Of a stretch of 64,000 nucleotides of DNA, positions 24,413 through 56,947 are shown piece by piece. The stretch lies in assembly GCA_944387405.1 (NCBI GenBank), contig CALXET010000003.1:143758-207757 (forward strand). Reading direction: 5' to 3'. The notes under the pieces were generated by a model. That model was given only the letters and a program-made list of their open reading frames with translations, was not told where the DNA came from and did no database searches. Numbering within the stretch: position 1 is the stretch's first letter; every line of letters starts with the position of its first letter. Made by a program: the position numbers and the translations under genes. This stretch comes from an uncultured Clostridia bacterium. GTDB lineage: Bacteria; Bacillota; Clostridia; TANB77; CAG-508.

Positions 24413-24985
24413 ATGAAGAACTACGAAATTGCTAATGAGGAAAGAGTTTTTAAGACACCGAGGATGGAAGGCGTAAAGCGGACTTTGAGAGCTGCTGACG
24501 GTGATGAGTTCACTCACACTATCATCAAATCTCAGCCCAGCGTGGCAATTATCGTCCGCAAGGATGGTAAGATTGCATTCATTCGCCAGCTCCGGAGCAC
24601 TACAAATCAGTATTACATTGAAATTCCGGCCGGACTTTTAAATGAGGGTGAAGACTCCATTCTGGACGCTGCAAAGCGTGAAGTCCGTGAGGAAACTGGT
24701 CTTATTGCTAAGAATGTCAAAATTCTGGTGCAGGGGCCGTCTCTGCTGGATCCGAGTAAGTCTGATGAGGACTTCGGAGTTGCAATTGCTGATGTCTGCG
24801 GTCATAAAAAACAGATTCTGGACGAGAACGAACGTATCGATTCTGAGCTGATTTGGCTGCCTGAAGACGAGGTCTTCTCCAGGCTCCGCCAGCAGATGAA
24901 CGAAGGCGTGCCGTTCTACGATGGACTGTTCCTTTCCGGGCACACCATGTACGCACTTCTTGCGTACAGCTTCCTGCGCAAATAA
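24413..24985 (+). CDS. Nudix hydrolase (ADP-ribose pyrophosphatase-like); the gene is strongly GC-rich relative to the genome
   Basis: 190 aa. The Nudix box is GLLNEGEDSILDAAKREVREETGL (G-x5-E-x7/8-REVxEExGL). The CDS is about 50% GC, against roughly 25% around it, by eye. The 5' UTR and RBS (AAAGGAGGAGAACATT-ATG) are native-looking and AT-rich. Confidence 0.8.
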   Translation: MKNYEIANEERVFKTPRMEGVKRTLRAADGDEFTHTIIKSQPSVAIIVRKDGKIAFIRQLRSTTNQYYIEIPAGLLNEGEDSILDAAKREVREETGLIAKNVKILVQGPSLLDPSKSDEDFGVAIADVCGHKKQILDENERIDSELIWLPEDEVFSRLRQQMNEGVPFYDGLFLSGHTMYALLAYSFLRK

Positions 24986-25009
24986 CGCGCTTACGGAAGT
25001 GGTCCTTTT

Positions 25010-25046
25010 CGAGGCTTGGGTCTTCCCGAGCCTCGCCATTTTTATT
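25010..25046 (+). terminator. GC-rich intrinsic terminator of the Nudix gene (cgaggcttgg-gtcttc-ccgagcctcg, then TTTTTATTTATT)
   Basis: A 10-bp stem with one G-U pair and a 6-nt loop, followed by a T-run. It has the same foreign (GC-rich) composition as the gene. Confidence 0.6.
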
Positions 25047-33888: not shown

Positions 33889-36800
33889 TTATATTAATTT
33901 AATTTCTCTACTTTGTGAAATAGAATAAATATATACATCCTTAATTTCAGTACTTAAAGCACTTTCAAGAGCCTTTCTATAAAGATCTAATTGAATTTTA
34001 TATTTTTCTTTTATTTCTAAATCATCTTTAAAATAATCAGTCTTATAATCAACTAAAACAATATTACCATCTTTTTCTTTAAAATATAAATCAATAATAC
34101 CTTGAACTAATATATTTTCTTTAGAATTATTTTCAAAAACTTCAGAAGCTTTAACATATGTATAAAAAGGTTTTTCTTTTTCTATAATTTCTGCTTTTCT
34201 TATTCTTTCTGCAAAGTCTGAATTTACAAATTTATATATTTTATCTATTTGTATAGTATTTTTTTCTTCTTCTGTAATTATTTTATCATGAACCATTTTA
34301 TTAACAAACTCTTTTATTTCGTCTAAAGAATATTTTCTTTTTAAATCTAACTTTTGAAAACATAAATGCATCAAAGTACCTCTCTGTGCTGCTGTAATCT
34401 TACTATCTTGCATAAATTTTGGTTTAATCTCTAAAACTTCTTTTTCAAATTTATCTATTACATCATCACTTAAGTTTCCTATATTGCTTTCTAGTTCATC
34501 TTTATTTTCTAAACTTTCCTTTATAACTTGTTCTTTATTTTCTGCATTTATTATTTCTTTAATCTTTGTAATTGAAGTTTTACTAGGAATAAGTGTATCT
34601 TCTATATTTTCATATTTCCAATTCAAAAGTTCATCTACTTTTTCAAGATTTTTATTATCAGAAAAAGCTATTCTAGTAATACTTTTATTCTCTTCTGTTT
34701 CAAAAGTAATTTCTTTTTCATTTATAACTTTAAGATCTATATAATCTCCTATATTATCTTTATTATTTAAATAAACAAGCTCTATCCAATCTAGATATGA
34801 AATATATTTTTGAATTAATAAATGATTAATCTTATTATTATCATTTTCGTAAATATTTAATAATTCCTTTTTATTTTCAAAGTCTTTTTCGAAATCGTTT
34901 TTTACTCCTGTAATAATTAGTTTTTCTTTTGCTCTTGTTAAAGCAACATATAAAACTCTCATCTCTTCTGATATGCTATCTATTTTAGATTTTAATCTGA
35001 TTGATTCTCTAGCTAAAGTATTATATTCAATCTTTCTTTCATAATTTATATATTTAGGTCCAAGCCCTATATCTTGATCTAATAAAATATTTTCATTTAA
35101 AGACCTCATATTAATTTGTTTGTCACTTCTTGCTAAAAAAACTACAGGGAATTCTAATCCTTTACTTTTATGGATACTCATTATTCTTACTACATTTTCG
35201 TTTTCTCCAATAATCTTAGCAGCTCCCATATCATTATTTGATTTCTTTATCTTCTCTAAATATTTAATAAAATTAAATAATCCTTTAAAACTTACTTTTT
35301 CATAATCTTTAGCTTTCTCAAATAAAAGTTTAAGATTTGCTTGCTTTAATTCTCCATTTTTAGTAAGCCCAACATAACTATAATATCCAGTATCTATATA
35401 TATTTTCCAGATAAGTTCATTTAAACTTAGATATTTTTCTTCTTCTCTCCATTTTCTTAGATTTTTGATAAAATTATCAATTTTTGTTTTAGTTATATTT
35501 TCTATATCCTTACTATTTAATGCTTCTTCTAATGAAGTATAAAAATAACAATTTCTATTTACTAGTCTAATTGATGTAATTTCATCATCAGAAAAATCAC
35601 ATATTGGTGATCTTAGTACAGATAAAAGTGGAATATCTTGATATGGATTATCTATTACTTTTAAAAGTGAAATTACCTTTTGTATCTCTAAAGATTCTAA
35701 ATAGTCATCACTTGTATCACTAAAAACAGGGATTCCAATATCGTATAATTCTTTTTCAAAAATATTGCTAACAGAAGATGTTGCTCTTAACAAGATTACA
35801 ATATCTCTATATTTTATATTTCTATATCCTTCTTTTTTATCAAAAACTTTATAATTGCTATCAATTAATTTCTTTATTTCGTAAGCAACATATTTTGCTT
35901 CAAGTTCTGCCTTTTCTAGTTTTCTTTCTTCATTGCTTTCATCTACACTTATAGAATCTTTTATTTCTTCATCTTCTAAGTCTTTATAAATATCTTCTTT
36001 TTCTTCGTCTTGTTTTAAATCTATTACATGTAATTCTACTTTTCCTGCATAATTAATATCTTCTTCAGGATCTTCAAAATTAGCTGAAAAATTAAGATAT
36101 TCTTCTTCATTATAATCAATATCTCCTAAACTTTTACTCATTATATTGCTAAAGATTAAGTTTGTAATATCTAATATAGATTTTCTACTTCTAAAGTTTT
36201 TAAAAAGCTGAATTTTAGTTCCATACTCATTTGTATCTACACCATATTTTTCGTATTTATCTAAGAATAATTCTGGTCTGGCTTGTCTAAATTTATAGAT
36301 ACTTTGCTTTACATCTCCTACCATAAATATATTTTTTCCATTAGAAATTGATGTTAATATATATTCTTGAACTAAATTACTATCTTGGTATTCATCGATT
36401 GCTATTTCTTCAAATTTATCTCTTAATTTTAAAGCCACATCACTTGGTTTTCTTTTTCCTGAATCATCTTTTTTCATCAATATATTTAATGCACTATGTT
36501 CAATATCACCAAATTCCATTATGTTTTTTTCTTTTTTCTTCTCATTATAAATATTAGTAAATTTATTTACTAATTCTCCTATTGACTTTAAAGTACTATA
36601 CATTGAATATATATCCTCATAAGCTTCTTTTGATTTATATACAAATGTTTTTCCTGTTATTTTTTTAAATTTATCTTTTATGTGATCTCTTGCAGATTTT
36701 GCAATATCTTTTATATCCATAACTATTTTCTTATCTGAAGGCCAAGTTTTAAATTTTAAATTATTTACAACTTCATAAGCTTCATCCCATGAATATAATG

Positions 36801-37587
36801 AATTCACTACATTTTCTAAAGATTCTATATCATCTAGAAGTACTAATACATATTTTTCAAGTTCTGCGTATTTGGAAATTTTTGATTTAATCAATTTCAA
36901 ATTATTAATTTCATCTATAATTTCATTCTTATAATTTTCAATTAAAATTTTACCCCAAATAGAATCTATAAAATCTTTATCTATTTTACTTTCAACATTA
37001 AATTCTTCAATTTTAGAATTCAACCATTCTTCAGGATATGGATTACTTTGTATTTGATCATATATTCTAAGTACTAAATCTTTTAAATTTTCATCTCCTC
37101 TATATGTTGCATATGTATTAATTAAGTCAATAAAGTTATTATCTTTGTTTAAATATAATTCTTCAAATAAATCTTCTAAAGCCTCTTGCTTTAGAATTTC
37201 TAATTCTGTATTATCAGCAATTCTGAAATTAGGTGATATTCCTATTTCATAAAAATTATTTTTTACTATATCTAAGCAAAATGAATCTATAGTACAAATA
37301 CTTGCTTTATTTAGAAACACAATTTGTCTTTGTAGATGTATATTGTTAGGATCTTCATCAATTTTCTTATATAGAGCATTTAAAATTCTCTCTCTCATCT
37401 CTGATGCCGCAGCATTAGTAAACGTTACAATTAAAAGTTTATCAATATCTATTCTATTATTTATAATTTTCTGAATAATTCTCTCTACTAATACTGTTGT
37501 TTTACCACTTCCTGCAGCAGCTGCTACTAAAATATTAGAACCATTTTCTTCAATTGCTCTTTTTTGTTCTTTAGTCCACTCTGGCAT
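33889..37587 (-). CDS. addA: ATP-dependent helicase/nuclease subunit A (AddA; UvrD-like helicase with a C-terminal PD-(D/E)xK nuclease)
   Basis: 1232 aa. The N-terminal region is TKEQKRAIEENGSNILVAAAAGSGKTTVLVERI. The UvrD motifs are present throughout. The C-terminal nuclease motif is GIIDLYFKEKDGNIVLVDYKTD. Confidence 0.9.
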   Translation of the reverse strand: MPEWTKEQKRAIEENGSNILVAAAAGSGKTTVLVERIIQKIINNRIDIDKLLIVTFTNAAASEMRERILNALYKKIDEDPNNIHLQRQIVFLNKASICTIDSFCLDIVKNNFYEIGISPNFRIADNTELEILKQEALEDLFEELYLNKDNNFIDLINTYATYRGDENLKDLVLRIYDQIQSNPYPEEWLNSKIEEFNVESKIDKDFIDSIWGKILIENYKNEIIDEINNLKLIKSKISKYAELEKYVLVLLDDIESLENVVNSLYSWDEAYEVVNNLKFKTWPSDKKIVMDIKDIAKSARDHIKDKFKKITGKTFVYKSKEAYEDIYSMYSTLKSIGELVNKFTNIYNEKKKEKNIMEFGDIEHSALNILMKKDDSGKRKPSDVALKLRDKFEEIAIDEYQDSNLVQEYILTSISNGKNIFMVGDVKQSIYKFRQARPELFLDKYEKYGVDTNEYGTKIQLFKNFRSRKSILDITNLIFSNIMSKSLGDIDYNEEEYLNFSANFEDPEEDINYAGKVELHVIDLKQDEEKEDIYKDLEDEEIKDSISVDESNEERKLEKAELEAKYVAYEIKKLIDSNYKVFDKKEGYRNIKYRDIVILLRATSSVSNIFEKELYDIGIPVFSDTSDDYLESLEIQKVISLLKVIDNPYQDIPLLSVLRSPICDFSDDEITSIRLVNRNCYFYTSLEEALNSKDIENITKTKIDNFIKNLRKWREEEKYLSLNELIWKIYIDTGYYSYVGLTKNGELKQANLKLLFEKAKDYEKVSFKGLFNFIKYLEKIKKSNNDMGAAKIIGENENVVRIMSIHKSKGLEFPVVFLARSDKQINMRSLNENILLDQDIGLGPKYINYERKIEYNTLARESIRLKSKIDSISEEMRVLYVALTRAKEKLIITGVKNDFEKDFENKKELLNIYENDNNKINHLLIQKYISYLDWIELVYLNNKDNIGDYIDLKVINEKEITFETEENKSITRIAFSDNKNLEKVDELLNWKYENIEDTLIPSKTSITKIKEIINAENKEQVIKESLENKDELESNIGNLSDDVIDKFEKEVLEIKPKFMQDSKITAAQRGTLMHLCFQKLDLKRKYSLDEIKEFVNKMVHDKIITEEEKNTIQIDKIYKFVNSDFAERIRKAEIIEKEKPFYTYVKASEVFENNSKENILVQGIIDLYFKEKDGNIVLVDYKTDYFKDDLEIKEKYKIQLDLYRKALESALSTEIKDVYIYSISQSREIKLI

Positions 37588-37638
37588 TTTTATCTCCTTA
37601 CTCTAAAAATCATGCTTTTACTAGCTTAATTCATAACA

Positions 37639-37866
37639 TTATTTATCTTTTTTTAACATGTCTTTTAACTTTTTTAATTTCTCTCTTCTTCTTTTTGTTT
37701 CTTCTTTATCAATTGTAATTATATTATCTTCTGAAACAGTTATAATATCTCCATCTTTTGCTTCTTTTGGAAAGTTTGTTCTTTCGATATTTTCTATTTT
37801 TCCTGTATTATAATCTTCTACTACTGCAAAATTTTCTTCAAATCTATCTATTATATATTTTTTCAT
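37639..37866 (-). CDS. DUF3006-family small protein
   Basis: 75 aa. MKKYIIDRFEENFAVVEDYNTGKIENIER resembles the DUF3006 N-terminal pattern. Confidence 0.4.
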   Translation of the reverse strand: MKKYIIDRFEENFAVVEDYNTGKIENIERTNFPKEAKDGDIITVSEDNIITIDKEETKRRREKLKKLKDMLKKDK

Positions 37867-38004
37867 AATATTTTAAATCTCCTTAAATATTATTTATCCT
37901 CATTTTATATCTAAATTTCCTAAACTTCTTTTTCACATTATACTTTATTAACTTTATTTTTTCAATTTATTATTTTTTAATCTAATATCTTATAAATATG
38001 AAAT

Positions 38005-38027
38005 GGGTTCCCTGAACCAGGGAACCC
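38005..38027 (-). terminator. Perfect GC-rich hairpin (gggttccctg-aac-cagggaaccc) 8 nt downstream of the HNH gene stop
   Basis: A 10-bp perfect stem with a 3-nt loop. It is GC-rich in an AT-rich background and is followed by a T-rich stretch on the minus-strand transcript. Confidence 0.5.
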
Positions 38028-38035
38028 ACAAGAAG

Positions 38036-38695
38036 TTAACGCAACTTCACGAAAACATTGTCCAGTTTTATAACTTGGACATACTCAAAACCGAAATCAA
38101 CAGCAACCCAATAAATAGTGTTTCCTTCAAGTAGCACATCATTTGCAGAAACAACAATTGGATTTGGCAAATGACCATACCTCTCAACAAAGTGAGTAAC
38201 TCTTTGGTACTTTTTCTGGTTTCTACCATCATCTGGGATTGGTCTTGCGATGATATCTTTAATATCCATCGAAGTTGTCCAATTCCTTGGAAGATCAAAA
38301 CCTCTTTGAAATCTAATCTTTCTTTTTTTCCGATAGATGCTCATTCTGTAGCGTTTTCCATCTTTTTCGTTCATAGTCCTAAAAACCTTAAACTCATAAT
38401 AGTTCAAGTCGCTTTTTTTATTATTGCAACTCTTACATGCTGGAGTCAGATTTGTAGGAATAGATACACCTCCAAAGAACCTAGGAAACATATGATCCAA
38501 AGTCATCTTTGATTTTTTGACGGTCTTTCCACAGTAAGTGCACACTTTTCTACCATTCAGAGCATAACATAAATCATACGCCAACTTTTCCCAAGAAATT
38601 AAGCCGTTAATATATAAGGTATTTTTTCTTACATAGGCACTTGCGGTCCGGTCATTGGTATAATATATGAATTTGCTCGGTAAAGGTATTTTCAT
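38036..38695 (-). CDS. HNH endonuclease family protein (GC-elevated, probably horizontally acquired)
   Basis: 219 aa. The HNH/zinc motif is CTYCGK...LDHMFPRFFGG...CKSCNNKKSD. The CDS is about 38% GC, above the roughly 25% background, by eye. Confidence 0.75.
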   Translation of the reverse strand: MKIPLPSKFIYYTNDRTASAYVRKNTLYINGLISWEKLAYDLCYALNGRKVCTYCGKTVKKSKMTLDHMFPRFFGGVSIPTNLTPACKSCNNKKSDLNYYEFKVFRTMNEKDGKRYRMSIYRKKRKIRFQRGFDLPRNWTTSMDIKDIIARPIPDDGRNQKKYQRVTHFVERYGHLPNPIVVSANDVLLEGNTIYWVAVDFGFEYVQVIKLDNVFVKLR

Positions 38696-38863
38696 ACATT
38701 ACCACCTCTTTCTATTATTTTCTGCTTGCATAGTATCACGTTTTTATTTTTAATTCAACAATATTCGTCATTATTTTTAATAAAACTTATTAAACAATTT
38801 CTTTTGTTGAATTTATTATAAATTTATAATATACTCTTATATATTTATTATGGAGGAAAATTA

Positions 38864-39502
38864 ATGAACAATTTTGACTTATCTATTTATAATTTTATAT
38901 ACGGATTAAATAGTCCAGGTTTAACAATGTTTATGAGAGTAATTTCCAGTCTTGGATCTGCTATTGTAATAATTACTGCACTTTTGTGTATTTTTTTACT
39001 ATTTAAAGATAAAAAAATATTTTTACAATTTTTCACCTTAACAATAGTTACTAAAGTAATTAATCATATAATTAAAATTATCGTAAAAAGAGAAAGACCT
39101 AATGTTTTAACTTCTATATCTGTAGAATCGGGATATAGCTTTCCTAGCGCTCATACTATGATTTCTACAGTATTCTATGGCTTTATTATTTATTTAATAA
39201 TGAAAAATGTAAAAAATAAAAAAATAAAAAATATTTCTATTATATCTCTTTTTATAATTATATTCTTAATTGGTATTAGTAGGATTTATTTAGGTGTACA
39301 TTATGCAACAGATGTTATCTTCGGATTTATTTTTGGATTTATAATTTTATTTATATTTATAAATTTAATTTATAAGAAAAGTAGAAAAAATATTTCATTT
39401 GAATTAAATAATGATTCAAAAAAATCTGAAAACATAAATAAAATTAATAGAACAATAAAATCAAGTAACAAAAGGGAAAATAAAATTAAGAATAAAAAAT
39501 AA
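38864..39502 (+). CDS. PAP2-family membrane phosphatase (undecaprenyl-diphosphate phosphatase-like)
   Basis: 212 aa. The PAP2 motifs are KxxxxxxRP (KIIVKRERPN), PSGH (SFPSAHT) and SRxxxxxHxxxD (SRIYLGVHYATDV). There are several TM helices. Confidence 0.8.
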   Translation: MNNFDLSIYNFIYGLNSPGLTMFMRVISSLGSAIVIITALLCIFLLFKDKKIFLQFFTLTIVTKVINHIIKIIVKRERPNVLTSISVESGYSFPSAHTMISTVFYGFIIYLIMKNVKNKKIKNISIISLFIIIFLIGISRIYLGVHYATDVIFGFIFGFIILFIFINLIYKKSRKNISFELNNDSKKSENINKINRTIKSSNKRENKIKNKK

Positions 39503-39572: not shown

Positions 39573-40340
39573 TTATTTCCAATATGTTGTTGGATTAACA
39601 TTTTGACTATCTAATAACATTTCAAAATGAAGATGTGGCTCATCCACAATCTCAAAGGCTCCACTACTTCCAACAGTACCAATTGTCTGTCCTTTTTTAA
39701 CACTATCACCTTGTTTTATAAACTCTGCAGATAATAAATTTGAATATACAGTTTCAAAGCCTTGACCATGATCTATAGTAACAGTTAGCCCATATCTTGG
39801 ATCATCTTTGATTGATTTAACTTTTCCATCTTCTGAAGATGCTACTGCACTTCCCTTTTCTGCTTTTATATCTACGCCATAATGAGTTGTCCATTCTTCT
39901 AAAGTCTCAGAATATATTAAATTTGTATCAGAATAATCTCTATATATTTCTCCTTCAAGAGGAACTTCAAATGAAAGTTCTTTTTTCTCCTCTTTTGCTT
40001 TATCACCTTCACTTTTTTTATCTGATTTATTCTCTTCAGTATCTACACTCTTTACTTCATTTTCAACTAGGTTTTCCACTTTTTTTTCACTAGATGTATT
40101 TTCAGTCGTATTTATTTCATTTATTCCCTTATCAGTACTAGATGTCGTACTTTCAATTATTTCTGTTTCCATTGAATTCATCTTTTGTGCCGCTATTTGT
40201 TTATCTGCATCTAATTTATTTTGATATAAAGAAAGTACAAATACAAGTGCTATGGCAGTTATAAATAAAACTATCCCAGAAATATATAAAATAGCTTTTA
40301 GCTTATTTTTATCTTCTACATAATACCTTTTTCCGCTCAT
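39573..40340 (-). CDS. M23/LytM-family peptidase, membrane-anchored; SpoIIQ-like by synteny with spoIID
   Basis: 255 aa. The N-terminal TM helix is ILYISGIVLFITAIALVFVL. The LytM motifs HYGVD (HxxxD) and HLHFEM (HxH) are intact. The gene is immediately downstream of spoIID, as spoIIQ is in other Clostridia. Confidence 0.55.
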   Translation of the reverse strand: MSGKRYYVEDKNKLKAILYISGIVLFITAIALVFVLSLYQNKLDADKQIAAQKMNSMETEIIESTTSSTDKGINEINTTENTSSEKKVENLVENEVKSVDTEENKSDKKSEGDKAKEEKKELSFEVPLEGEIYRDYSDTNLIYSETLEEWTTHYGVDIKAEKGSAVASSEDGKVKSIKDDPRYGLTVTIDHGQGFETVYSNLLSAEFIKQGDSVKKGQTIGTVGSSGAFEIVDEPHLHFEMLLDSQNVNPTTYWK

Positions 40341-40419: not shown

Positions 40420-41418
40420 TTAATAACTTGCATTTTGAACATCTACACCTGAATAAAAATGTTTTATTATTTCAATATAATTTTTCCCTTGCTTTGCTAA
40501 TGTGTTACTCCCTGTTTGACTAAGTCCAACTCCATGCCCATATCCTTTAACTATAAATTTAATATTATTCTTTCCTATATCTATAGAAAAATTTGCAGAT
40601 CTTAATTCAAATATTTTCCTTACTTCCACTCCACTTAATGTCTTATTTCCTATCTTTATTTGCTTAATTCTATCTCCTTCTGTATATGAAATAATTTTTA
40701 TACAATCTTTATCATTAAAATCAATTTTAAAATCTTTATATTCTTTTTTCATTTTTTCTATAAATTCATCTTTTTTTAATGAAACTTCTGATGAATATTG
40801 TTTATATGTATCTTCTCCTGAAGTCTCTACACTCTGCAAATATGGATATCCTTCTCCACCCCAAACGTATAATGGTCTTTCAGTTTTTCCGCCGCTATTA
40901 GAATGAAAAAAAGCATTTATCACTTTACCTTTATAAGTTATAATTTTTCCTTTTGTACTATCTACAGCCTCTTTTATTTTCTCCCATTTTTTATCTTTAT
41001 CTGTTTTCCAAGCTTTATATCTTTCGCCTTTAGAAATCCATGCTTGACAACATCCTGAATCATCGCAAATATCAGCATTTTTATGTTTAGATGAATTAAT
41101 TATCTTATATAATGTATATGTCCTTGCTACTGTAGCTTGTGCTTTCAATGCTTCTATTTCATAGTCTACTGGCATTTCAGCTGAAACCACATTATACAAA
41201 TATTCATCTATATTTACACTTTCTATTTTCCCTGTATCAGAATGTAATAATTTTATTTTTTCATATTTTCCATAGTCATAACTTCCATCTACTATTCCCT
41301 CACCGTAATTCTTATTTGCTATTACTTGTTCTATTTTTTCAAATCTAGAAGTAAAAATTATTGGAATCAAAAAAAATAAGATTATTACAATAATCATATA
41401 TATTAATAATCTTTTCAC
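40420..41418 (-). CDS. spoIID: Stage II sporulation protein D (SpoIID-family lytic transglycosylase)
   Basis: 332 aa. There is an N-terminal TM helix and a SpoIID/LytB-type domain. It is positioned 3 nt downstream of sigF. Confidence 0.65.
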   Translation of the reverse strand: MKRLLIYMIIVIILFFLIPIIFTSRFEKIEQVIANKNYGEGIVDGSYDYGKYEKIKLLHSDTGKIESVNIDEYLYNVVSAEMPVDYEIEALKAQATVARTYTLYKIINSSKHKNADICDDSGCCQAWISKGERYKAWKTDKDKKWEKIKEAVDSTKGKIITYKGKVINAFFHSNSGGKTERPLYVWGGEGYPYLQSVETSGEDTYKQYSSEVSLKKDEFIEKMKKEYKDFKIDFNDKDCIKIISYTEGDRIKQIKIGNKTLSGVEVRKIFELRSANFSIDIGKNNIKFIVKGYGHGVGLSQTGSNTLAKQGKNYIEIIKHFYSGVDVQNASY

Positions 41419-41421
41419 TTC

Positions 41422-42129
41422 TTAAATTATCTCCTTTATATCTTCTCTCATTTTTTGAAGTATTTTTTTCTCTAATCTTGATACCTGTACTTGGCTTATT
41501 CCATATATTTTAGCAACTTCACTTTGTGTTTTTTCCTTAAAGTATCTTAATAAAATAATATTTTTTTCTTTTTCATCAAGTTTTTTTAGTGCATCTTTAA
41601 TCATAATTCTTTGAACTATATTATTTTCTGGATTTTCATTTTTTTCTATTATTATTTTTTCTTCTTTTTCTTTTATACTATTTGTAAAACAATACTCATT
41701 AATTGATTCTACACTACTATTAATATTTTGAGCTAATATAAAATCTTCTTTTGATATTTTTAACTCTTTAACAATCTTATCCATTGAAACTTCTTCATTA
41801 TTTTTTTCATACTTTTCTTCTAATAATTTTATCTTATAATTTAACTCTTTTAATCCCCTGCTTACTTTAATCATTCCATCATCTCTTAAAAATATTTTTA
41901 TCTCTCCTATTATATATGGAACTGCATACGTAGATAATTTTGTATCATAAGATAAATCAAATCTCTTTACTGCTTTAATAAACCCTATTGCTCCTATTTG
42001 AAATAAATCATCTAATTCATATCCTCTATTTTTAAATCTTTTTACAATACTCCATATAAGTGCAGAATTTTCTGATACTAGCGTTTCTAAATCTTTTTCT
42101 GTAATATTCTCATCACTTACATTTTTCAC
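41422..42129 (-). CDS. sigF: Sporulation sigma factor F (SpoIIAC)
   Basis: 235 aa. Sigma-70 region 2 is DLFQIGAIGFIKAVKRFD and region 4 is TQSEVAKIYGISQVQVSRLEKK. The gene follows spoIIAA-spoIIAB. Confidence 0.85.
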   Translation of the reverse strand: MKNVSDENITEKDLETLVSENSALIWSIVKRFKNRGYELDDLFQIGAIGFIKAVKRFDLSYDTKLSTYAVPYIIGEIKIFLRDDGMIKVSRGLKELNYKIKLLEEKYEKNNEEVSMDKIVKELKISKEDFILAQNINSSVESINEYCFTNSIKEKEEKIIIEKNENPENNIVQRIMIKDALKKLDEKEKNIILLRYFKEKTQSEVAKIYGISQVQVSRLEKKILQKMREDIKEII

Positions 42130-42153
42130 TAGTTTCTCCTTAAAATTTTATCT

Positions 42154-42624
42154 TTATGTACATAGATCAGTATCTCTTTCAAATTCTTGATCTATTTTTG
42201 AAATTTTCTTTTTCATAGTAATCTTAGTTCCAAGACCAACTATTGATTCTATTTTTAATTCATCCATAAAATTTTCTACGATTGTAAACCCCATACCTGA
42301 TCTCTCCAGCTCAGCTTTCGAAGTATATAAAGGCTTTCTTGCAAGTTCTACATCCTCAATGCCCTTTCCTGTATCTGAAATTTCAATTACAATTGTATTA
42401 TCAATAATTTTAGATATTATCTTTATTATTCCATCAGATGTATCATATGCATGAATAATAGAATTTGTTACAATTTCAGATACTGAAGTTTTAATATCAG
42501 ATAATTCTTCAATAGTTGGATCTAACTGAGAAGCAAAAGCTGCAACTGTTATTCTTGCAAAAGCTTCATTACAAGACTTACTTATAAATTCTAGTTTCAT
42601 TTCATTGTCATACTTATTCTTCAT
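42154..42624 (-). CDS. spoIIAB: Anti-sigma F factor, serine kinase (SpoIIAB)
   Basis: 156 aa with a GHKL ATPase fold ([36 protein letters not shown]). It overlaps spoIIAA by 11 nt. Confidence 0.85.
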
Positions 42625-42952
42625 TACTAACCTCCTCTATATTTAAAGTAGTTATTGGAATAATTTTTAAAACTCCTGTCATCTCAAAGATTCTTCTTAT
42701 ATTTGGCTTTACATTTATCATTTCCATTTTTGCACCTAACATTGCAGCTGTTTTATATCTTCCAATTACCATTCCGATTCCGGCACTATCCATGAAGCTA
42801 ACACTATTAAAATCAAGTATAACTCTTTTAGGATTTCGTCTTTGAATCTCATAATCTGCATCCCTCCTTAATTTTTCTGCCATATGATGATCTATTTCTT
42901 CTGTTATTTCTAAAATTAAAAGCTTGTCCTTTTCTATATATCTCTCGTTCAT
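42614..42952 (-). CDS. spoIIAA: Anti-anti-sigma F factor (SpoIIAA, STAS domain)
   Basis: 112 aa with a STAS fold. The phosphorylatable Ser context is [18 protein letters not shown]. Confidence 0.85.
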
Positions 42953-43151: not shown

Positions 43152-45800
43152 TTATTTTAATTTTTCTAATCTTTCTTTTACTGCTTCTAACTTTTCCTTA
43201 TAATTTGCAAGTTTTTCTTTTTCTTCATTAACTTTAGCTTCAGGTGCTTTTGAAATAAATCCTTGATTAGAAAGCATTTTTTCTCCTCTTAATACTTCTG
43301 CTTCAAGCTTTTTCTTTTCTCCTTCTAATCTTTCTATTTCTTCTTTAATGTCAACTAAATCTCCTGAAGGCATATATACTTCAATTCCACTATTTACAAT
43401 AGCAATAGCATTATCTGGAATATTTTCTTTTTCTTCTTTTACTTCTAATGAACTTCCAAATCCTAGCTTTAATAAAAATCCTTCTGATTCTTTTATTTCG
43501 TCTTTATATTCTTTAGTTACAAATATTAATTTAGCTTTTTTACTAGGATGAGCATTCATATTTGCTCTAACATTTCTAATTTCAGTAATTATATTTTTAA
43601 GAATTTCTATTAAATATTCTTCTTTTTCAAATATGAAATTCTCTGAATAATCTGAATAATTATCAATCATTATACTTTCTTTTACATCATATAATTTTGT
43701 ATAAATCTCTTCTGTTATAAACGGCATAAATGGATGTAATAATTTTAAAGCAGATTTAAGTACTCTGTTTAAAGTATATTGAGCAGCATATCTTGACTCA
43801 TCTTCTTTGTTATATAATCTAGTTTTTACAATCTCTATATACCAATCACAAAACTCATTCCATATAAATGAATATATCTTATCTAAAGCTACTCCTAAAT
43901 CATAGTTATCAATATTATTTTCCACTTCTTTCATAAGTTTTGTTACTTTACTTAATATCCATTTATCTTCAATTTTTAATTCTTTTAAATCTATTTTACT
44001 TAAATCTTTAGCATCTTCTAAATTCATTAAAACAAATTTTGAAGCATTCCATAATTTATTTGAAAAATTTGCTGCTTGTTCTAATTTTTCAGGCATATAT
44101 CTTATATCATTTCCCATTGTAGTACCAGATAAAACTGAAAATCTTAAACTATCTGCACCATATTTATCTATAACATCTAAAGGGTCCACACCATTTCCAA
44201 GAGTTTTTGACATCTTTCTTCCTTGACTATCACGAATAATACCGTGAATTAATACATCTTTAAATGGTTCTTTACCAGTAAATTCTAAGGCCTGAGTCAT
44301 CATTCTAGATACCCAGAAAGTAATAATATCAAATCCTGTAACTAATGTATTAGTTGGATAAAATCTCTTGTAATCTTCATTTTCTGTATTTGGCCAACCA
44401 AGAGTTGAAAATGGCCATAATGCTGAACTAAACCATGTATCTAATGTATCTTCATCTTGTTTTAGATGTGTGCTTCCACACTTTTCACATTTTTCTGGTT
44501 TCGTTTTAGCAACATTAATATGATTACATTCTTCGCAATAATATGCTGGAATTCTATGTCCCCACCATAATTGTCTTGATATACACCAATCTTGTATATT
44601 ATCAAGCCAGTGAAAATATTGTTTCTCATATCTTTTTGGAATAAATCTTGTTTTATCCTCTCTTACACTATCAGCAGCTCTTTTAGCTAAATCCTTCATT
44701 TTTACAAACCATTGTGTAGATATCTTAGGTTCGATTGTATTTTTACATCTTTCACATTTTGCAACATTATGAGTATAATCTTCTTCTTTTACTAAAGCTC
44801 CTATTTCTTTTAATTTTTCTACTATTTTTTCTCTTGCTTCCAATAAATCCATTCCTTTATATTCTGGAACTAAATCACCCATTTTAAAATTATCATCAAA
44901 TACACTTACTATTTCTAGATTATGTCTTAATCCTGCTTGATAATCATTCATATCATGAGCTGGTGTTATTTTAACACATCCTGTTCCAAAATCTTTTTCA
45001 ACAAAATCATCTGCTATAATTGGAATTTCTTTATTCATTATTGGTAATATACATGTTTTTCCTACTAAATCTTTATATCTTTTGTCATCTGGATGTACTG
45101 CTACTGCTGTATCACCAAGCATAGTCTCTGGTCTTGTTGTTGCAACTACAATATACTTATCCTCATCTTTTATCTTATATCTAATATGCCATAAATGAGA
45201 TGGTTCTTCTTTATATTCAACTTCTGCATCAGATATAGATGTATTACAACTTGTACACCAATTAACCATTCTTTTGCCTTTATAAATTAATCCTTTTTCA
45301 TATAATCTAACAAATTGTTCTAATACCGCATCTGACATGCCTTCATCTAAAGTAAATCTATTTCTATCCCAATCACAAGAGCATCCTAGCTTTCTTTGTT
45401 GTTTTTGGATAATTCCACCATATTCATGAGTCCAATTCCAAGCTTCTTCTAAGAATTTTTCTCTTCCTAAATCTTGCTTTGTTTTTCCTTCTTTAGCAAG
45501 TTTTTGTACAACTTTCATTTCAGTAGAAATAGCTGCATGATCTGTACCTGGAAGCCAAAGTACATCATAACCTTTCATCCTTTTATATCTAATTAAAATA
45601 TCTTGTATAGTTCCATCTAATGCGTGCCCCATATGAAGTTTTCCAGTTACATTTGGTGGTGGCATCATTATACAATATGGTTCTTTTGTTTTATCCATAC
45701 TAGGTTTAAAATAACCTTTCTTTTCCCAATTTTCATAGATTTTGTCTTCAAAATCTTTTGGATTAAATTTGTCATTTAATTTATGTTTGTTTTCTTCCAT
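43152..45800 (-). CDS. valS: Valine--tRNA ligase
   Basis: 882 aa. The HIGH motif is PPNVTGKLHMGHAL and the KMSKS motif is GRKMSKTLGN. There is a C-terminal coiled coil. The zinc knuckle is CTSCNT...CEKCGS. Confidence 0.95.
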   Translation of the reverse strand: MEENKHKLNDKFNPKDFEDKIYENWEKKGYFKPSMDKTKEPYCIMMPPPNVTGKLHMGHALDGTIQDILIRYKRMKGYDVLWLPGTDHAAISTEMKVVQKLAKEGKTKQDLGREKFLEEAWNWTHEYGGIIQKQQRKLGCSCDWDRNRFTLDEGMSDAVLEQFVRLYEKGLIYKGKRMVNWCTSCNTSISDAEVEYKEEPSHLWHIRYKIKDEDKYIVVATTRPETMLGDTAVAVHPDDKRYKDLVGKTCILPIMNKEIPIIADDFVEKDFGTGCVKITPAHDMNDYQAGLRHNLEIVSVFDDNFKMGDLVPEYKGMDLLEAREKIVEKLKEIGALVKEEDYTHNVAKCERCKNTIEPKISTQWFVKMKDLAKRAADSVREDKTRFIPKRYEKQYFHWLDNIQDWCISRQLWWGHRIPAYYCEECNHINVAKTKPEKCEKCGSTHLKQDEDTLDTWFSSALWPFSTLGWPNTENEDYKRFYPTNTLVTGFDIITFWVSRMMTQALEFTGKEPFKDVLIHGIIRDSQGRKMSKTLGNGVDPLDVIDKYGADSLRFSVLSGTTMGNDIRYMPEKLEQAANFSNKLWNASKFVLMNLEDAKDLSKIDLKELKIEDKWILSKVTKLMKEVENNIDNYDLGVALDKIYSFIWNEFCDWYIEIVKTRLYNKEDESRYAAQYTLNRVLKSALKLLHPFMPFITEEIYTKLYDVKESIMIDNYSDYSENFIFEKEEYLIEILKNIITEIRNVRANMNAHPSKKAKLIFVTKEYKDEIKESEGFLLKLGFGSSLEVKEEKENIPDNAIAIVNSGIEVYMPSGDLVDIKEEIERLEGEKKKLEAEVLRGEKMLSNQGFISKAPEAKVNEEKEKLANYKEKLEAVKERLEKLK

Positions 45801-54369: not shown

Positions 54370-55068
54370 TTACTTGCTTAATATCCAATCTACAATTACT
54401 TTTTTTATTTCATAGTATTCTTGTTCTGTAAATTGCATATTAGCAATACAAAATCTTCTACTTGATATGTGAGAACAAAACATACATTCATATAAATTAT
54501 TACAATCTTGAATAAAATATGAATTTACTATTTTAGCAGAACATATTACATTATAACTATTAGAACAAGCTGTGGAATCATCTACTCTAATACAATTTAT
54601 TGAATTTCCTGTTCTTTGAGAAGCAATTACTCCTTCACAATCTCCACATCCATCTGAGAAAATCATGTTTTTACATTTTCTGCAATCTGTTGATCTAAAT
54701 ATATTTTCCGAATCATATATAGTATCACTTTCAGATACATTTATTGAATTATATATTCTCTCTGTCGTTGTAAAATTAATTCTATTCCATATATTTATTA
54801 TGTCTTCTAAAGACTTTATTTCTCTTTTAGAAACCATCCACCCTTTCGCTTTATCATATTTTCTCATTGTATCTTGCTTAATATATTTTTTAGAATTTTC
54901 CATTTCAGACCATGTTATTTCTCCTGTCACGCTGTCTTTAACTTGTTTTGGGAGTTTAACATCAAAAGCAAATTTTTCCTCTAGTTCCTCAATTGTAAAT
55001 GGACATTCTCTTCCAAATATATTAAAAAATACCTTTGAAATTTCTTTTTCTACTTCTAATCTATTCAT
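54370..55068 (-). CDS. Cys-rich hypothetical protein (multiple CxxC pairs in the C-terminal half; possible metal-binding domain)
   Basis: 232 aa. The C-terminal roughly 100 residues contain 14 Cys, including CRKC, CGDC and CMFC. The start ATG overlaps the stop of the upstream ATPase gene by 8 nt (ATGAATAG). Confidence 0.5.
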   Translation of the reverse strand: MNRLEVEKEISKVFFNIFGRECPFTIEELEEKFAFDVKLPKQVKDSVTGEITWSEMENSKKYIKQDTMRKYDKAKGWMVSKREIKSLEDIINIWNRINFTTTERIYNSINVSESDTIYDSENIFRSTDCRKCKNMIFSDGCGDCEGVIASQRTGNSINCIRVDDSTACSNSYNVICSAKIVNSYFIQDCNNLYECMFCSHISSRRFCIANMQFTEQEYYEIKKVIVDWILSK

Positions 55069-56947
55069 ATCTTATTTTTCTCCTACTCGTAGATTGTGAT
55101 TCCATTAATTTTTTTATATCAAACTTATTATCACCAATTTTAAATCCTATATTTTTTAATAACTTATTTTTTCTGTTATCATCTTTAGCATCTGGCTTCA
55201 TTAATATTTGATTTTTATTTTTGGGGATTGGTTTAAAATCTATTGTTCTAGCTCTAAATGCAGGAATAAGAACTCCATTTTTAGTTATTCTTACTATACA
55301 ATCTCTATTTGGTAGTTCTGTTAAAAGTTTAATCCTATTATGATATGTATTTTTTACCGCCATTTCCATTTGTAATTGATTATTTAAAATCATAGCATCT
55401 TCTCTAGAAATTCTAAATGAATAATAATTCATTACATTTGAAAAAATCGCATCTTGTAAATCTTCACTTATTTGTCCAAAATATTGCCCTGCAAGTATTA
55501 TTGACAAATTATATTTTCTAGCTTCAGAAAGTAAATTTTTAAGTATTGGATTTTCTACTACAGCAACTTCATCAATTATTAAAATTAAATGTTCTAAAAA
55601 AGCATGTCTTTGAACTAATTGAAATATTACTCCCATTATAAGTCCCGCTATTGTTTTAGTAACTTTTTCTCCAAGTTCTGCTTGATTTAAAGAAAATATA
55701 GTTAAAAAATTATTTCTAATCTCATTTTCAATGTTTTTTTCATTTTTTTCTCTAAAGCATGGCAACATTTGCATTTCATCAATAAGAGCAATTATCGGAG
55801 ATATAGCTTCAGTATATGAATTTGTCTTTATCTCATTAAAATCAGAACCAAAAAACTCTTTGATATGTGATTCTACATCATCAGATTCTCTTAACAATTT
55901 ATTTCTAAATTCAGTATCTATTATTAATTTTCTTAAATTTTCAAAATCTAATTTCTCCTTTTTAAGTAATAAATAAATACTATGTCTTAACACTCTTTCA
56001 AGCTTTGAATTAAATTCTTCTCCAAACACACTTTTTAATACAGTAAGTAATATTTCTGTTCCACTACTTACATTTTTATTTGAATTAATTAGGAGGTCAA
56101 CACTACTAGATTTTTTCTTCATATCAATTACTTGTGTTTCATCCAATCCACCTATATCATTTTCTATTGAACTATGTGGATCTATCATCACAATTTTGTA
56201 ATCTGCTTTAAAATTTTTATTATCATAAATATTTTTTATCATTTGCGCTATAAGTTTAGATTTTCCAGTTCCACTTCCACCTACTATCAATGAATGTTTA
56301 TCAAAATCATAATTTTCAATATTTAAAAAATATTTATTCTGTGAATATGGAAAAGTATTTACTTCTAGCATATTGTCTTTCTTTTCATCTGTTTCAAACA
56401 TATGTATAGATTTTTGAATTTGCAAATATTTACTTCCTTCTTTTACATATGAAAATCTAGTATGCTTTGAAAAATCAACACTAAGTTGAATATGAGGAAT
56501 AAAAAATATAGTTCTTCCTTTTGATTTATTCCCCCTTTCATGTTCAAAATATAATTTAGCCTTAGTAAAATAATTAGTTTTAGAAAAAGATGTAAAAGTA
56601 ATTTCAACTTGCTTTAAAAACTGTCTATATTTTGATTCATTTCTATCATAAATATCTACCAAGTTGTTTTCATATTTTCTTACTAAATATAAATATTCTA
56701 TTAAAGTCTTTTCTCTCTTAAAAGAATCTATTTTTTTTATCAGAAAACTACCTGAACAACTAAGAACAGTAGGAAGTTTTTTTCTAGATACTATATAATA
56801 TTTAATTACACTTCTTTCGATTTTTACATATAACTTCCAACTTCTAAAAAATCCATTTAGATTTGAAATCTCTAATAAAAATTTTAACCATTCATTTTCA
56901 TCTATATAGTCAGAAGTTAAATATATTTCATACATATATCTCTTCAT
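55061..56947 (-). CDS. P-loop NTPase of the FtsK/HerA/TraG (AAA-like, DUF87-type) superfamily with an uncharacterised N-terminal domain of about 220 aa
   Basis: 628 aa. The Walker A is SLIVGGSGTGKSKLI (about residues 220-234). The Walker B is HLILIIDEVAVVEN. No TM segments. Confidence 0.6.
   Translation of the reverse strand: MKRYMYEIYLTSDYIDENEWLKFLLEISNLNGFFRSWKLYVKIERSVIKYYIVSRKKLPTVLSCSGSFLIKKIDSFKREKTLIEYLYLVRKYENNLVDIYDRNESKYRQFLKQVEITFTSFSKTNYFTKAKLYFEHERGNKSKGRTIFFIPHIQLSVDFSKHTRFSYVKEGSKYLQIQKSIHMFETDEKKDNMLEVNTFPYSQNKYFLNIENYDFDKHSLIVGGSGTGKSKLIAQMIKNIYDNKNFKADYKIVMIDPHSSIENDIGGLDETQVIDMKKKSSSVDLLINSNKNVSSGTEILLTVLKSVFGEEFNSKLERVLRHSIYLLLKKEKLDFENLRKLIIDTEFRNKLLRESDDVESHIKEFFGSDFNEIKTNSYTEAISPIIALIDEMQMLPCFREKNEKNIENEIRNNFLTIFSLNQAELGEKVTKTIAGLIMGVIFQLVQRHAFLEHLILIIDEVAVVENPILKNLLSEARKYNLSIILAGQYFGQISEDLQDAIFSNVMNYYSFRISREDAMILNNQLQMEMAVKNTYHNRIKLLTELPNRDCIVRITKNGVLIPAFRARTIDFKPIPKNKNQILMKPDAKDDNRKNKLLKNIGFKIGDNKFDIKKLMESQSTSRRKIRYE

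Follow-up and report, generated by a model that had tools for sequence, protein, structure and literature searches.

An HNH–ParB/Srx nuclease gene beside addA in gut Clostridia is probably an old resident with persistently GC-rich codons

Here we describe a gene for an HNH nuclease that lies upstream of addA in a 64-kilobase (kb) stretch of DNA from an uncultured Clostridia bacterium (contig CALXET010000003.1); we refer to the whole stretch as the window, and all positions are counted along it. We consider it probable that this is an old, vertically inherited, separately transcribed and stand-alone nuclease gene, and not an insertion that displaced addB. An earlier note on this DNA had read the gene as a small acquired unit, possibly linked to a rearrangement that separated addA from addB. 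Recent acquisition is contradicted by synteny across the clade, by the agreement of HNH and AddA trees and by the lack of target-site duplications or terminal repeats. The proposed link to a rearrangement fails because addB is non-adjacent to addA clade-wide, including at two loci (L017 and L019) that have no HNH gene.

The HNH gene (38036–38695, minus strand) encodes a two-domain predicted nuclease of 219 amino acids, and its open reading frame (ORF) contains the motifs that the earlier note quoted: CTYCGK (C52 and C55), DHMFP (D67 and H68) and CKSCNNKK (C87, C90 and N91). As had also been described, this gene and a gene for a 75-amino-acid DUF3006 protein (37639–37866, minus strand; Pfam PF11213, 77 bits) lie directly upstream of addA, with 51 nucleotides (nt) between DUF3006 and addA. 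The addA gene itself (33889–37587, minus strand) encodes 1,232 amino acids with helicase and PD-(D/E)XK nuclease domains (TIGR02785, 1091.5 bits; Pfam UvrD-helicase, UvrD_C and PDDEXK_1). The picture of a free-standing gene of non-native composition in the position usually taken by addB was confirmed.

The arrangement is shared widely. Homologues with 78% identity to the HNH protein, and others with 68, 59 and 50%, were all found at the same position, in the common order valS–spoIIA–sigF–spoIID–M23, PAP2 (in the opposite orientation), HNH, DUF3006, addA, hyp190 and lepA. A scan for AddA in GTDB species representatives gave 39 loci, and every locus with an AddA identity of at least 56% and enough upstream sequence has this order, with the sole exception of L019. 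Over the syntenic relatives, identity ranges from 78% to 34% for HNH, from 84% to 56% for AddA and from 98% to 75% for ValS; at the deepest syntenic loci HNH is 34–43% identical, with ValS still at 75–86%. One locus (L053) has lost DUF3006 and retains HNH directly upstream of addA. At L019, which has no HNH gene, a two-component system precedes DUF3006–addA, and L017 has addA with neither HNH nor DUF3006; no remnants of HNH were found at either locus. Neighbour-joining trees of HNH and AddA are concordant on the main groups, and the addA-linked HNH genes form one clade in the tree of all recovered family members. The same position in deep relatives, together with concordant trees, argues that the arrangement is ancient: HNH has been seated between PAP2 and (DUF3006–)addA since before the split of lineages that now share 56% AddA identity.

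Rates of substitution agree with a long residence. The ratio of nonsynonymous to synonymous substitution (dN/dS) of HNH is 0.07–0.20 against three sister species (0.11 for addA), which indicates that the protein is under purifying selection. Its synonymous sites are near saturation between species, with a proportion of synonymous differences (pS) of 0.63–0.71 compared with 0.2–0.55 in most neighbours, and this saturation points to an old gene. The NG86 method overestimates synonymous divergence (dS) for HNH, a gene of more even base composition than its neighbours, which makes the contrast in dS with them unreliable; we do not rely on a dS two to three times higher in HNH. Direct or inverted repeats flanking the gene amount to AT-rich chance matches, no tRNA or Rfam family (introns included) was found in the window, and no empty-site alleles were found among close relatives. 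The gene lies inside neither an intron nor an intein. Conservation of position together with native composition was what the earlier note had set against its own reading; the position is conserved across the clade and the composition is not native.

The HNH gene also has expression signals of its own. Beginning 7 nt past its stop codon is a perfect GC-rich hairpin (TGGGTTCCCTG/CAGGGAACCCA; 38004–38028) with a 3-nt loop and a stem of 11 base pairs (bp), rather than the 10 bp given earlier, followed on the minus strand by a T-rich tract. In a terminator scan and by folding, the region at 37990–38029 (minus strand; GC-rich stem of 11–12 bp, 3-nt loop and T-rich tail) takes the form of an intrinsic (Rho-independent) terminator for HNH transcription, with a minimum free energy of −21 kcal/mol. 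Two terminator-like sites were found, against 0.3 expected from shuffled sequences, and the second lies within the same hairpin. A GC-rich stem-loop directly past the HNH stop codon is present in all 11 syntenic orthologues that were folded, in most of them with a T-rich tract next to it; these hairpins are mutually unrelated in sequence, so their conservation is structural. Between the terminator and DUF3006 stands the top-scoring promoter-like site of the scan (TTGAAA-17-TATAAT, 11 of 12 positions; 37937–37965, minus strand). Given this terminator and promoter-like site, HNH looks monocistronic and DUF3006–addA looks like a separate transcription unit. On the other side, the divergent intergenic region between HNH and PAP2 (38696–38863) holds the HNH Shine–Dalgarno sequence, as read from the DNA (AGAGGTGG; 38702–38709, minus strand), and a weak extended −10 candidate upstream of HNH (TTGAAT-N17-(TG)TACTAT; 38730–38758), which falls below the scan threshold and is offered as a suggestion only.

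The gene stands out in composition. Its elevated GC content is real, although slightly overstated in the earlier note: 35.3% against 26.0% for the window, rather than about 38% against about 25%. The excess lies at third codon positions, where GC content (GC3) is 0.341 compared with 0.120 ± 0.026 in 43 other ORFs (z = 8.6); GC at first positions (GC1, 0.368) is not above that of other genes and GC at second positions (GC2, 0.350) is mildly raised (z of 1.4). The compositional step coincides with the HNH ORF and its hairpin, and GC3 is low in the flanking DUF3006 (0.09) and PAP2 (0.13) genes. Codons ending in A are halved in HNH, those ending in C and in G are both enriched, and CTG, CGG, CGC and ACC, nearly unused in the background genes, occur several times. 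GC3 is raised in all 13 syntenic orthologues measured (0.20–0.52 compared with 0.11–0.15 in neighbours) and in most family members elsewhere (0.20–0.46 compared with 0.10–0.28). We defined memory as the extent to which synonymous third positions in the window and in a given relative still share their weak or strong state. Memory in neighbouring genes is 0.22 for the closest species and 0.05–0.10 for deeper ones; in HNH it is about 0 (−0.04 to 0.09) at the deeper distances and not below that of neighbours at shallow depth. Thus, the third positions of HNH have been rewritten many times and GC3 is still 2–4 times the genomic value, which excludes both a relic of an old transfer and an element conserved at the nucleotide level. 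Amino acid composition was ruled out as the source of the excess by the GC1 and GC2 values, residue of an ancient transfer by the synonymous turnover, and a conserved RNA or DNA element within the ORF by saturated sites whose weak or strong state is not kept at depth. Two long alternative-frame ORFs lie inside the gene (113 amino acids, 38171–38512, plus strand; 76 amino acids, 38068–38298, minus strand), as its higher GC content leaves fewer stop codons.

Judged from the codons, the GC excess is an equilibrium that synonymous sites have reached in this gene specifically. In a two-state model, a GC3 of 0.34 instead of 0.10 would correspond to an extra population-scaled push towards G or C of around ln(9/1.9), or about 1.5. 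Speculatively, rare codons may be selected to throttle the translation of a hazardous enzyme. Other candidate causes are a tendency to avoid AT-rich motifs or slippery runs, and GC-biased gene conversion at a recombination-prone locus; it counts against conversion that the excess ends with the ORF. The enrichment of G-ending codons counts against ordinary translational selection. A second gene in the window, which encodes a NUDIX hydrolase (24413–24985, plus strand), shows the same pattern and has a GC content of 48.5% and a GC3 of 0.54 (z of 16 against other ORFs), with its own Shine–Dalgarno sequence and a GC-rich terminator-like hairpin at about 25009–25034. The identical NUDIX protein occurs in the same aspS–NUDIX–DUF402 context in at least 22 other contigs, and a 74%-identical orthologue after aspS in another species has a GC3 of 0.38 against about 0.10. 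A 63%-identical relative is the only strongly GC-rich gene (GC3 of 0.53) on an AT-rich mobilisable element that carries a relaxase, MobC, RepA_N and TnpV. HNH and NUDIX may both be hazardous enzymes held down by selected GC-rich rare codons, with a coefficient of roughly 1.5; we regard this as likelier than the replacement of AddB by the HNH protein that is considered below.

Profile matches identify the encoded protein as an HNH nuclease (HNH_5, PF14279, 44.7 bits with a cutoff of 27.5; HNH, PF01844, 40.3 bits with a cutoff of 21.4; residues 52–96). An AlphaFold2 (AF2) model built with 23 homologues is a single compact structure with a predicted local distance difference test (pLDDT) score of 95.8 and a predicted template modelling (pTM) score of 0.90. 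Its predicted parts are an N-terminal beta/alpha element, the HNH core (residues ~49–105), a basic helix (110–131) and a C-terminal domain (~138–217). The core, a His-Me finger (38381–38551, minus strand), takes up the beta-beta-alpha-metal fold in the model, with C52, C55, C87 and C90 as zinc ligands and D67–H68, N82 and N91 as catalytic residues; these eight residues do not vary among 23 sequences, and among 62 their conservation is at least 90%. The C-terminal domain (38045–38284, minus strand) has a ParB/Srx fold, according to fold matches to the model, and retains the Srx-like segments I-x-R-P and LP-x-P-I-V; Pfam ParBc gave no match to the protein. The GERRxR/GxxR phosphate-binding box is missing from this domain, in which the aligned segment is L-L-[ED]-G-x and conserves no arginine (LLEGNT in the window; LLDGRI, LLDGFT and VFKGKH in others). 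As modelled, the protein joins a zinc-stabilised HNH nuclease domain to a ParB/Srx-fold domain at the C terminus.

Relatives of this protein form a compact family. A HMMER search over 1.84 billion representatives returned 135 family proteins at E ≤ 1e-30, nearly all of 208–240 amino acids and aligned over their full length; this corresponds to about 135 clusters at 50% identity. In a metagenome scan, the HNH protein was matched over most or all of its length at 59 loci, among which adjacency to DUF3006–addA is limited to members of the present clade. Other members are solitary genes in genomes of 24–36% GC and lie between varied housekeeping genes (for example, fba–smpB, prfA, hpt and spoVG); in one group fba–smpB follows immediately downstream and the upstream neighbours vary between loci. 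No recurring partner gene, such as a methyltransferase or antitoxin, was found in the family contexts examined, and DUF3006 is missing from L053 and from all contexts without addA. Searches by tblastn of INPHARED (50,697 records) and PLSDB (72,556 records) recovered no full-length copy (no record reached 80% coverage of the protein), with only the HNH core matched, and no relative was found in IMG/VR as far as a pattern scan reaches; an origin of the gene in a phage or plasmid was rejected on this basis. The family is chromosomal, uncharacterised and confined so far to AT-rich gut Clostridia. At one locus (L080, 4976–7943), genes for a Metallophos nuclease and an AAA_27/AAA_23 ATPase (SbcD/SbcC or YhaO/YhaN-like) lie ~2 kb upstream of a family member, and a gene for a peptide chain release factor (PCRF/RF-1) stands in between; this is a single case of proximity to double-strand break processing genes. 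At two others (L099 and L102), which belong to a related lineage and in which valS is 73–82% identical to that of the window, valS is followed at ~4 kb by a family member from a different subfamily, with a DpaA-like gene immediately upstream of that member and neither spoIIA–spoIID nor addA nearby.

Comparison with characterised nucleases places the protein as an uncharacterised variant of a known theme. Its best sequence match in the PDB is the HNH nicking endonuclease Gmet_0936 of Gme (4h9d; E of 3.6e-10, about 39% identity over the core). With Gmet_0936 and the GVE2 HNH endonuclease (5h0o) it shares the CxxC...DH...N...CxxC-N zinc-stabilised beta-beta-alpha-metal core. Those enzymes, however, are single-domain proteins of ~100 amino acids, often phage-encoded beside terminase, whereas the window protein adds an N-terminal element, a basic helix and a ParB/Srx domain, and is chromosomal and not found in phage collections. 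The nearest functional analogues would be GmrSD, BrxU and SspE, stand-alone type IV restriction nucleases that combine a DUF262 ParB/Srx NTPase with a DUF1524 His-Me nuclease (PMC4619093, PMC5714182). They likewise carry a ParB/Srx fold and a His-Me finger nuclease on a single, solitary polypeptide and have no partner methyltransferase. The window protein differs in having the nuclease first (the reverse order), in being one third to one half their size, in not conserving the DGQQR/GERR-type nucleoside triphosphate (NTP) motif and in having no defence island around it; with no Pfam match to DUF262 or DUF1524, it is not a member of the GmrSD/BrxU/SspE family. A 2025 survey lists fusions of the ParB-CTPase fold with HNH as a bacterial, chromosomal and uncharacterised 'novel fusion' (PMC12704722). 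The domain pairing is the same, and the survey gives neither a function nor a family definition; the ParB-like domain of the window protein, unlike those fusions, is a minimal Srx-like module without the arginines that bind cytidine triphosphate (CTP). From its motifs and model, the HNH protein would be a self-contained, metal-dependent DNA nickase or endonuclease, in which the ParB/Srx domain probably has a gating function, for DNA or a ligand, by analogy with GmrSD, BrxU and SspE. We infer that the leading single role is that of a genome-conflict or restriction-type nuclease, at somewhat less than an even chance; some other role would come next, followed by an accessory in recombination or repair and, last, a selfish nuclease.

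Several points weigh against our account of an old, vertically inherited, stand-alone nuclease of this kind. Vertical inheritance is deduced from neighbour-joining trees of short proteins. Retention in synteny for so long is unusual among defence genes. PADLOC gave no full-length match to the HNH protein, of which only the core resembles PDC-M01B and PtuB, and no meaningful match among the neighbours of three other family members, where no defence island was seen. Gating by a nucleotide is doubtful for a domain whose sequence is missing the arginine-rich NTP-binding motif. Neither the rare-codon idea nor the others tested account for the persistent GC3 of HNH.

A different reading, which we hold to be unlikely, is that the HNH–ParB/Srx protein is a partner of AddA, either as an analogue of HlpB/YisB that acts on intermediates generated by AddAB or as a nuclease that replaces a missing AddB. 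It draws on the absence of addB, which the earlier note had correctly reported for the window: the only other ORF of more than 1,000 amino acids is DnaE, and tblastn of eight AddB proteins from distant loci matched only the helicase region of addA. The expectation that addB in Firmicutes normally lies immediately upstream of addA also held, as the same queries found addB (about 1,110–1,165 amino acids) in that position, overlapping the start of addA, at 27 of 28 distant loci (AddA identity of ≤37%). At the loci of the clade, where the region around addA was covered, there was no AddB-like match. Because the HNH-free loci L017 and L019 also have no adjacent addB, the separation of addA from addB is old and does not depend on HNH; non-adjacency is a clade-wide feature independent of that gene. 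A precedent is Clostridium tetani, in which addA and addB are not linked (PMC1193525).

Further support for a partnership with AddA comes from L053, where HNH stays directly upstream of addA despite the loss of DUF3006, from the family member near SbcD/SbcC or YhaO/YhaN-like genes at L080, and from HlpB/YisB of Bacillus subtilis. Deletion of hlpB is lethal unless addA or addAB is also deleted (Pediaditakis 2012, as summarised in PMC3765158), and yisB adjoins addAB–sbcCD in Bacillus (PMC5714182); in these two accounts, HlpB/YisB is the sole experimentally supported tie between such a gene and AddAB. Both cases concern a small stand-alone HNH-type gene beside add genes in a Firmicute. HlpB differs in being a single domain of 100 amino acids with no detectable nuclease activity. 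It belongs to His-Me group 15, whereas 4h9d and Cas9 share the group of the window HNH core (group 1; PMC5714182), and YisB, compared here by description only, has a stated 11% identity to 4h9d (PMC3765158), against about 39% for the core of the window protein. At the Gracilibacillus locus L022, gerP genes rather than sbcDC–yisB lie downstream of addA, and there is no YisB orthologue at the locus. The partnership also has to contend with the collinearity of the whole valS–lepA region in the clade, which makes adjacency little informative, with the terminator and promoter-like site that part HNH from DUF3006–addA, with the distance of most family members from addA, with addA genes that do without HNH (L017 and L019) and with strains that have a frameshifted HNH and an intact addA. 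The stronger form, in which AddA works without a canonical AddB and the place of the second nuclease or DNA-handling subunit is taken by the upstream HNH–ParB/Srx nuclease, possibly together with DUF3006, is very unlikely; if true, AddA and HNH–ParB/Srx of this clade would be a non-canonical end-resection machine.

Also quite improbable is a selfish, free-standing homing endonuclease that cuts HNH-less alleles and is copied by recombination, with GC-biased conversion producing the GC3 excess. The gene resembles the mob and seg homing genes of T4 in being a solitary nuclease gene between conserved genes, with its own expression signals, atypical composition and a tendency to decay, and it occupies several contexts across lineages. 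The decay is visible within one species as at least three independent loss-of-function lesions, as a homing cycle in its decay phase would produce. Truncated alleles fall into seven protein clusters (P0005–P0010 and P0013), the in-frame parts of which are 95–100% identical to the window protein. Five of the seven share one frameshift, with the ORF at 38068–38298 as the out-of-frame tail, and the other two have different deletions. The shared frameshift is the change from A7 to A6 in a run at 38323–38329 (minus strand; T7 on the plus strand) that covers the codons R-K-K-R; DNA of L051 and L052 is 99% identical to the window with this single 1-nt gap. Sister species (L001, L005 and L007) have only A5 at this place, so A7 is a mutational hotspot rather than a programmed site, and a programmed frameshift was ruled out. 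The intact allele is commoner (cluster P0001, 47 member sequences), and flanking genes, including addA, are intact in frameshifted strains. We infer that HNH is conserved between species and conditionally dispensable, being lost in some strains.

Unlike the T4 genes, the window HNH gene shows no mobility, empty sites or tree incongruence, and presence or absence at a fixed site combined with horizontal spread, the pattern of a homing gene, was not found for it. Its trees match the host, consistent with vertical inheritance, and strong purifying selection has acted on it over deep time. No empty-site alleles were found in close relatives, and no copies turned up in the phages or plasmids searched. 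Co-conversion tracts would be expected to spread, whereas the GC excess is confined to the ORF. High apparent synonymous divergence (pS of 0.63–0.71 against 0.2–0.55 in most neighbours) would suit a homing gene, but high dS is partly a compositional artefact, and memory at shallow depth is not below that of neighbours. Least probable of all, and very much so, is the recent insertion upstream of addA of a homing-type HNH gene, or of a toxin or anti-phage cassette, tied to a rearrangement that removed addB: the foreign-looking codon usage with its sharp boundary at the ORF, the gene's own terminator and the lack of addB in the window suggest it, but the position is occupied in relatives down to 34% HNH and 56% AddA identity, the trees are congruent with the addA-linked genes monophyletic, synonymous divergence between species has reached saturation, the gene is flanked by neither target-site duplications nor terminal repeats, and L017 and L019, which have no HNH gene, likewise have no adjacent addB.

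Around the HNH locus, the conserved neighbours are PAP2 (38864–39502, plus strand), an M23 peptidase gene (39573–40340), spoIID (40420–41418), spoIIAA, spoIIAB and sigF (41422–42952) and valS (43152–45800), all on the minus strand except PAP2; beyond addA, a gene for a 190-amino-acid membrane protein (hyp190) and then lepA follow on the minus strand. The sporulation genes are intact in the window and fragmentary in some relatives, with spoIIAA broken up or truncated, spoIID in two parts of 116 and 214 amino acids and sigF shortened (L051, 5748–6081; L005, 5602–5899; L009, 5860–8350; L011, 1804–2259). Parts of the clade may be in the course of losing sporulation, or the fragments may come from assembly error. 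Elsewhere in the window (54370–56947, minus strand), a 628-amino-acid HerA/DUF87-type ATPase with weak TrwB/TraG-like matches is overlapped by a 232-amino-acid ORF with no Pfam match; the two could be the remnant of a conjugation or defence module.

Much of what is described here is ordinary: a long-resident gene, a terminator hairpin and a clade-wide separation of addA from addB that has a precedent. The analysis defines a compact, confidently modelled HNH–ParB/Srx nuclease family without a characterised member, which adds a minimal example, in reversed order, to the ParB/Srx and His-Me theme of type IV restriction enzymes. Persistent GC-rich codon usage is the one unexplained feature of the HNH gene, which is a clean natural example of gene-specific synonymous composition kept through vertical descent past synonymous turnover. 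As such, it is relevant to the question of what governs codon composition when a genome is extremely AT-rich, be it selection for rare codons, biased gene conversion or something else.

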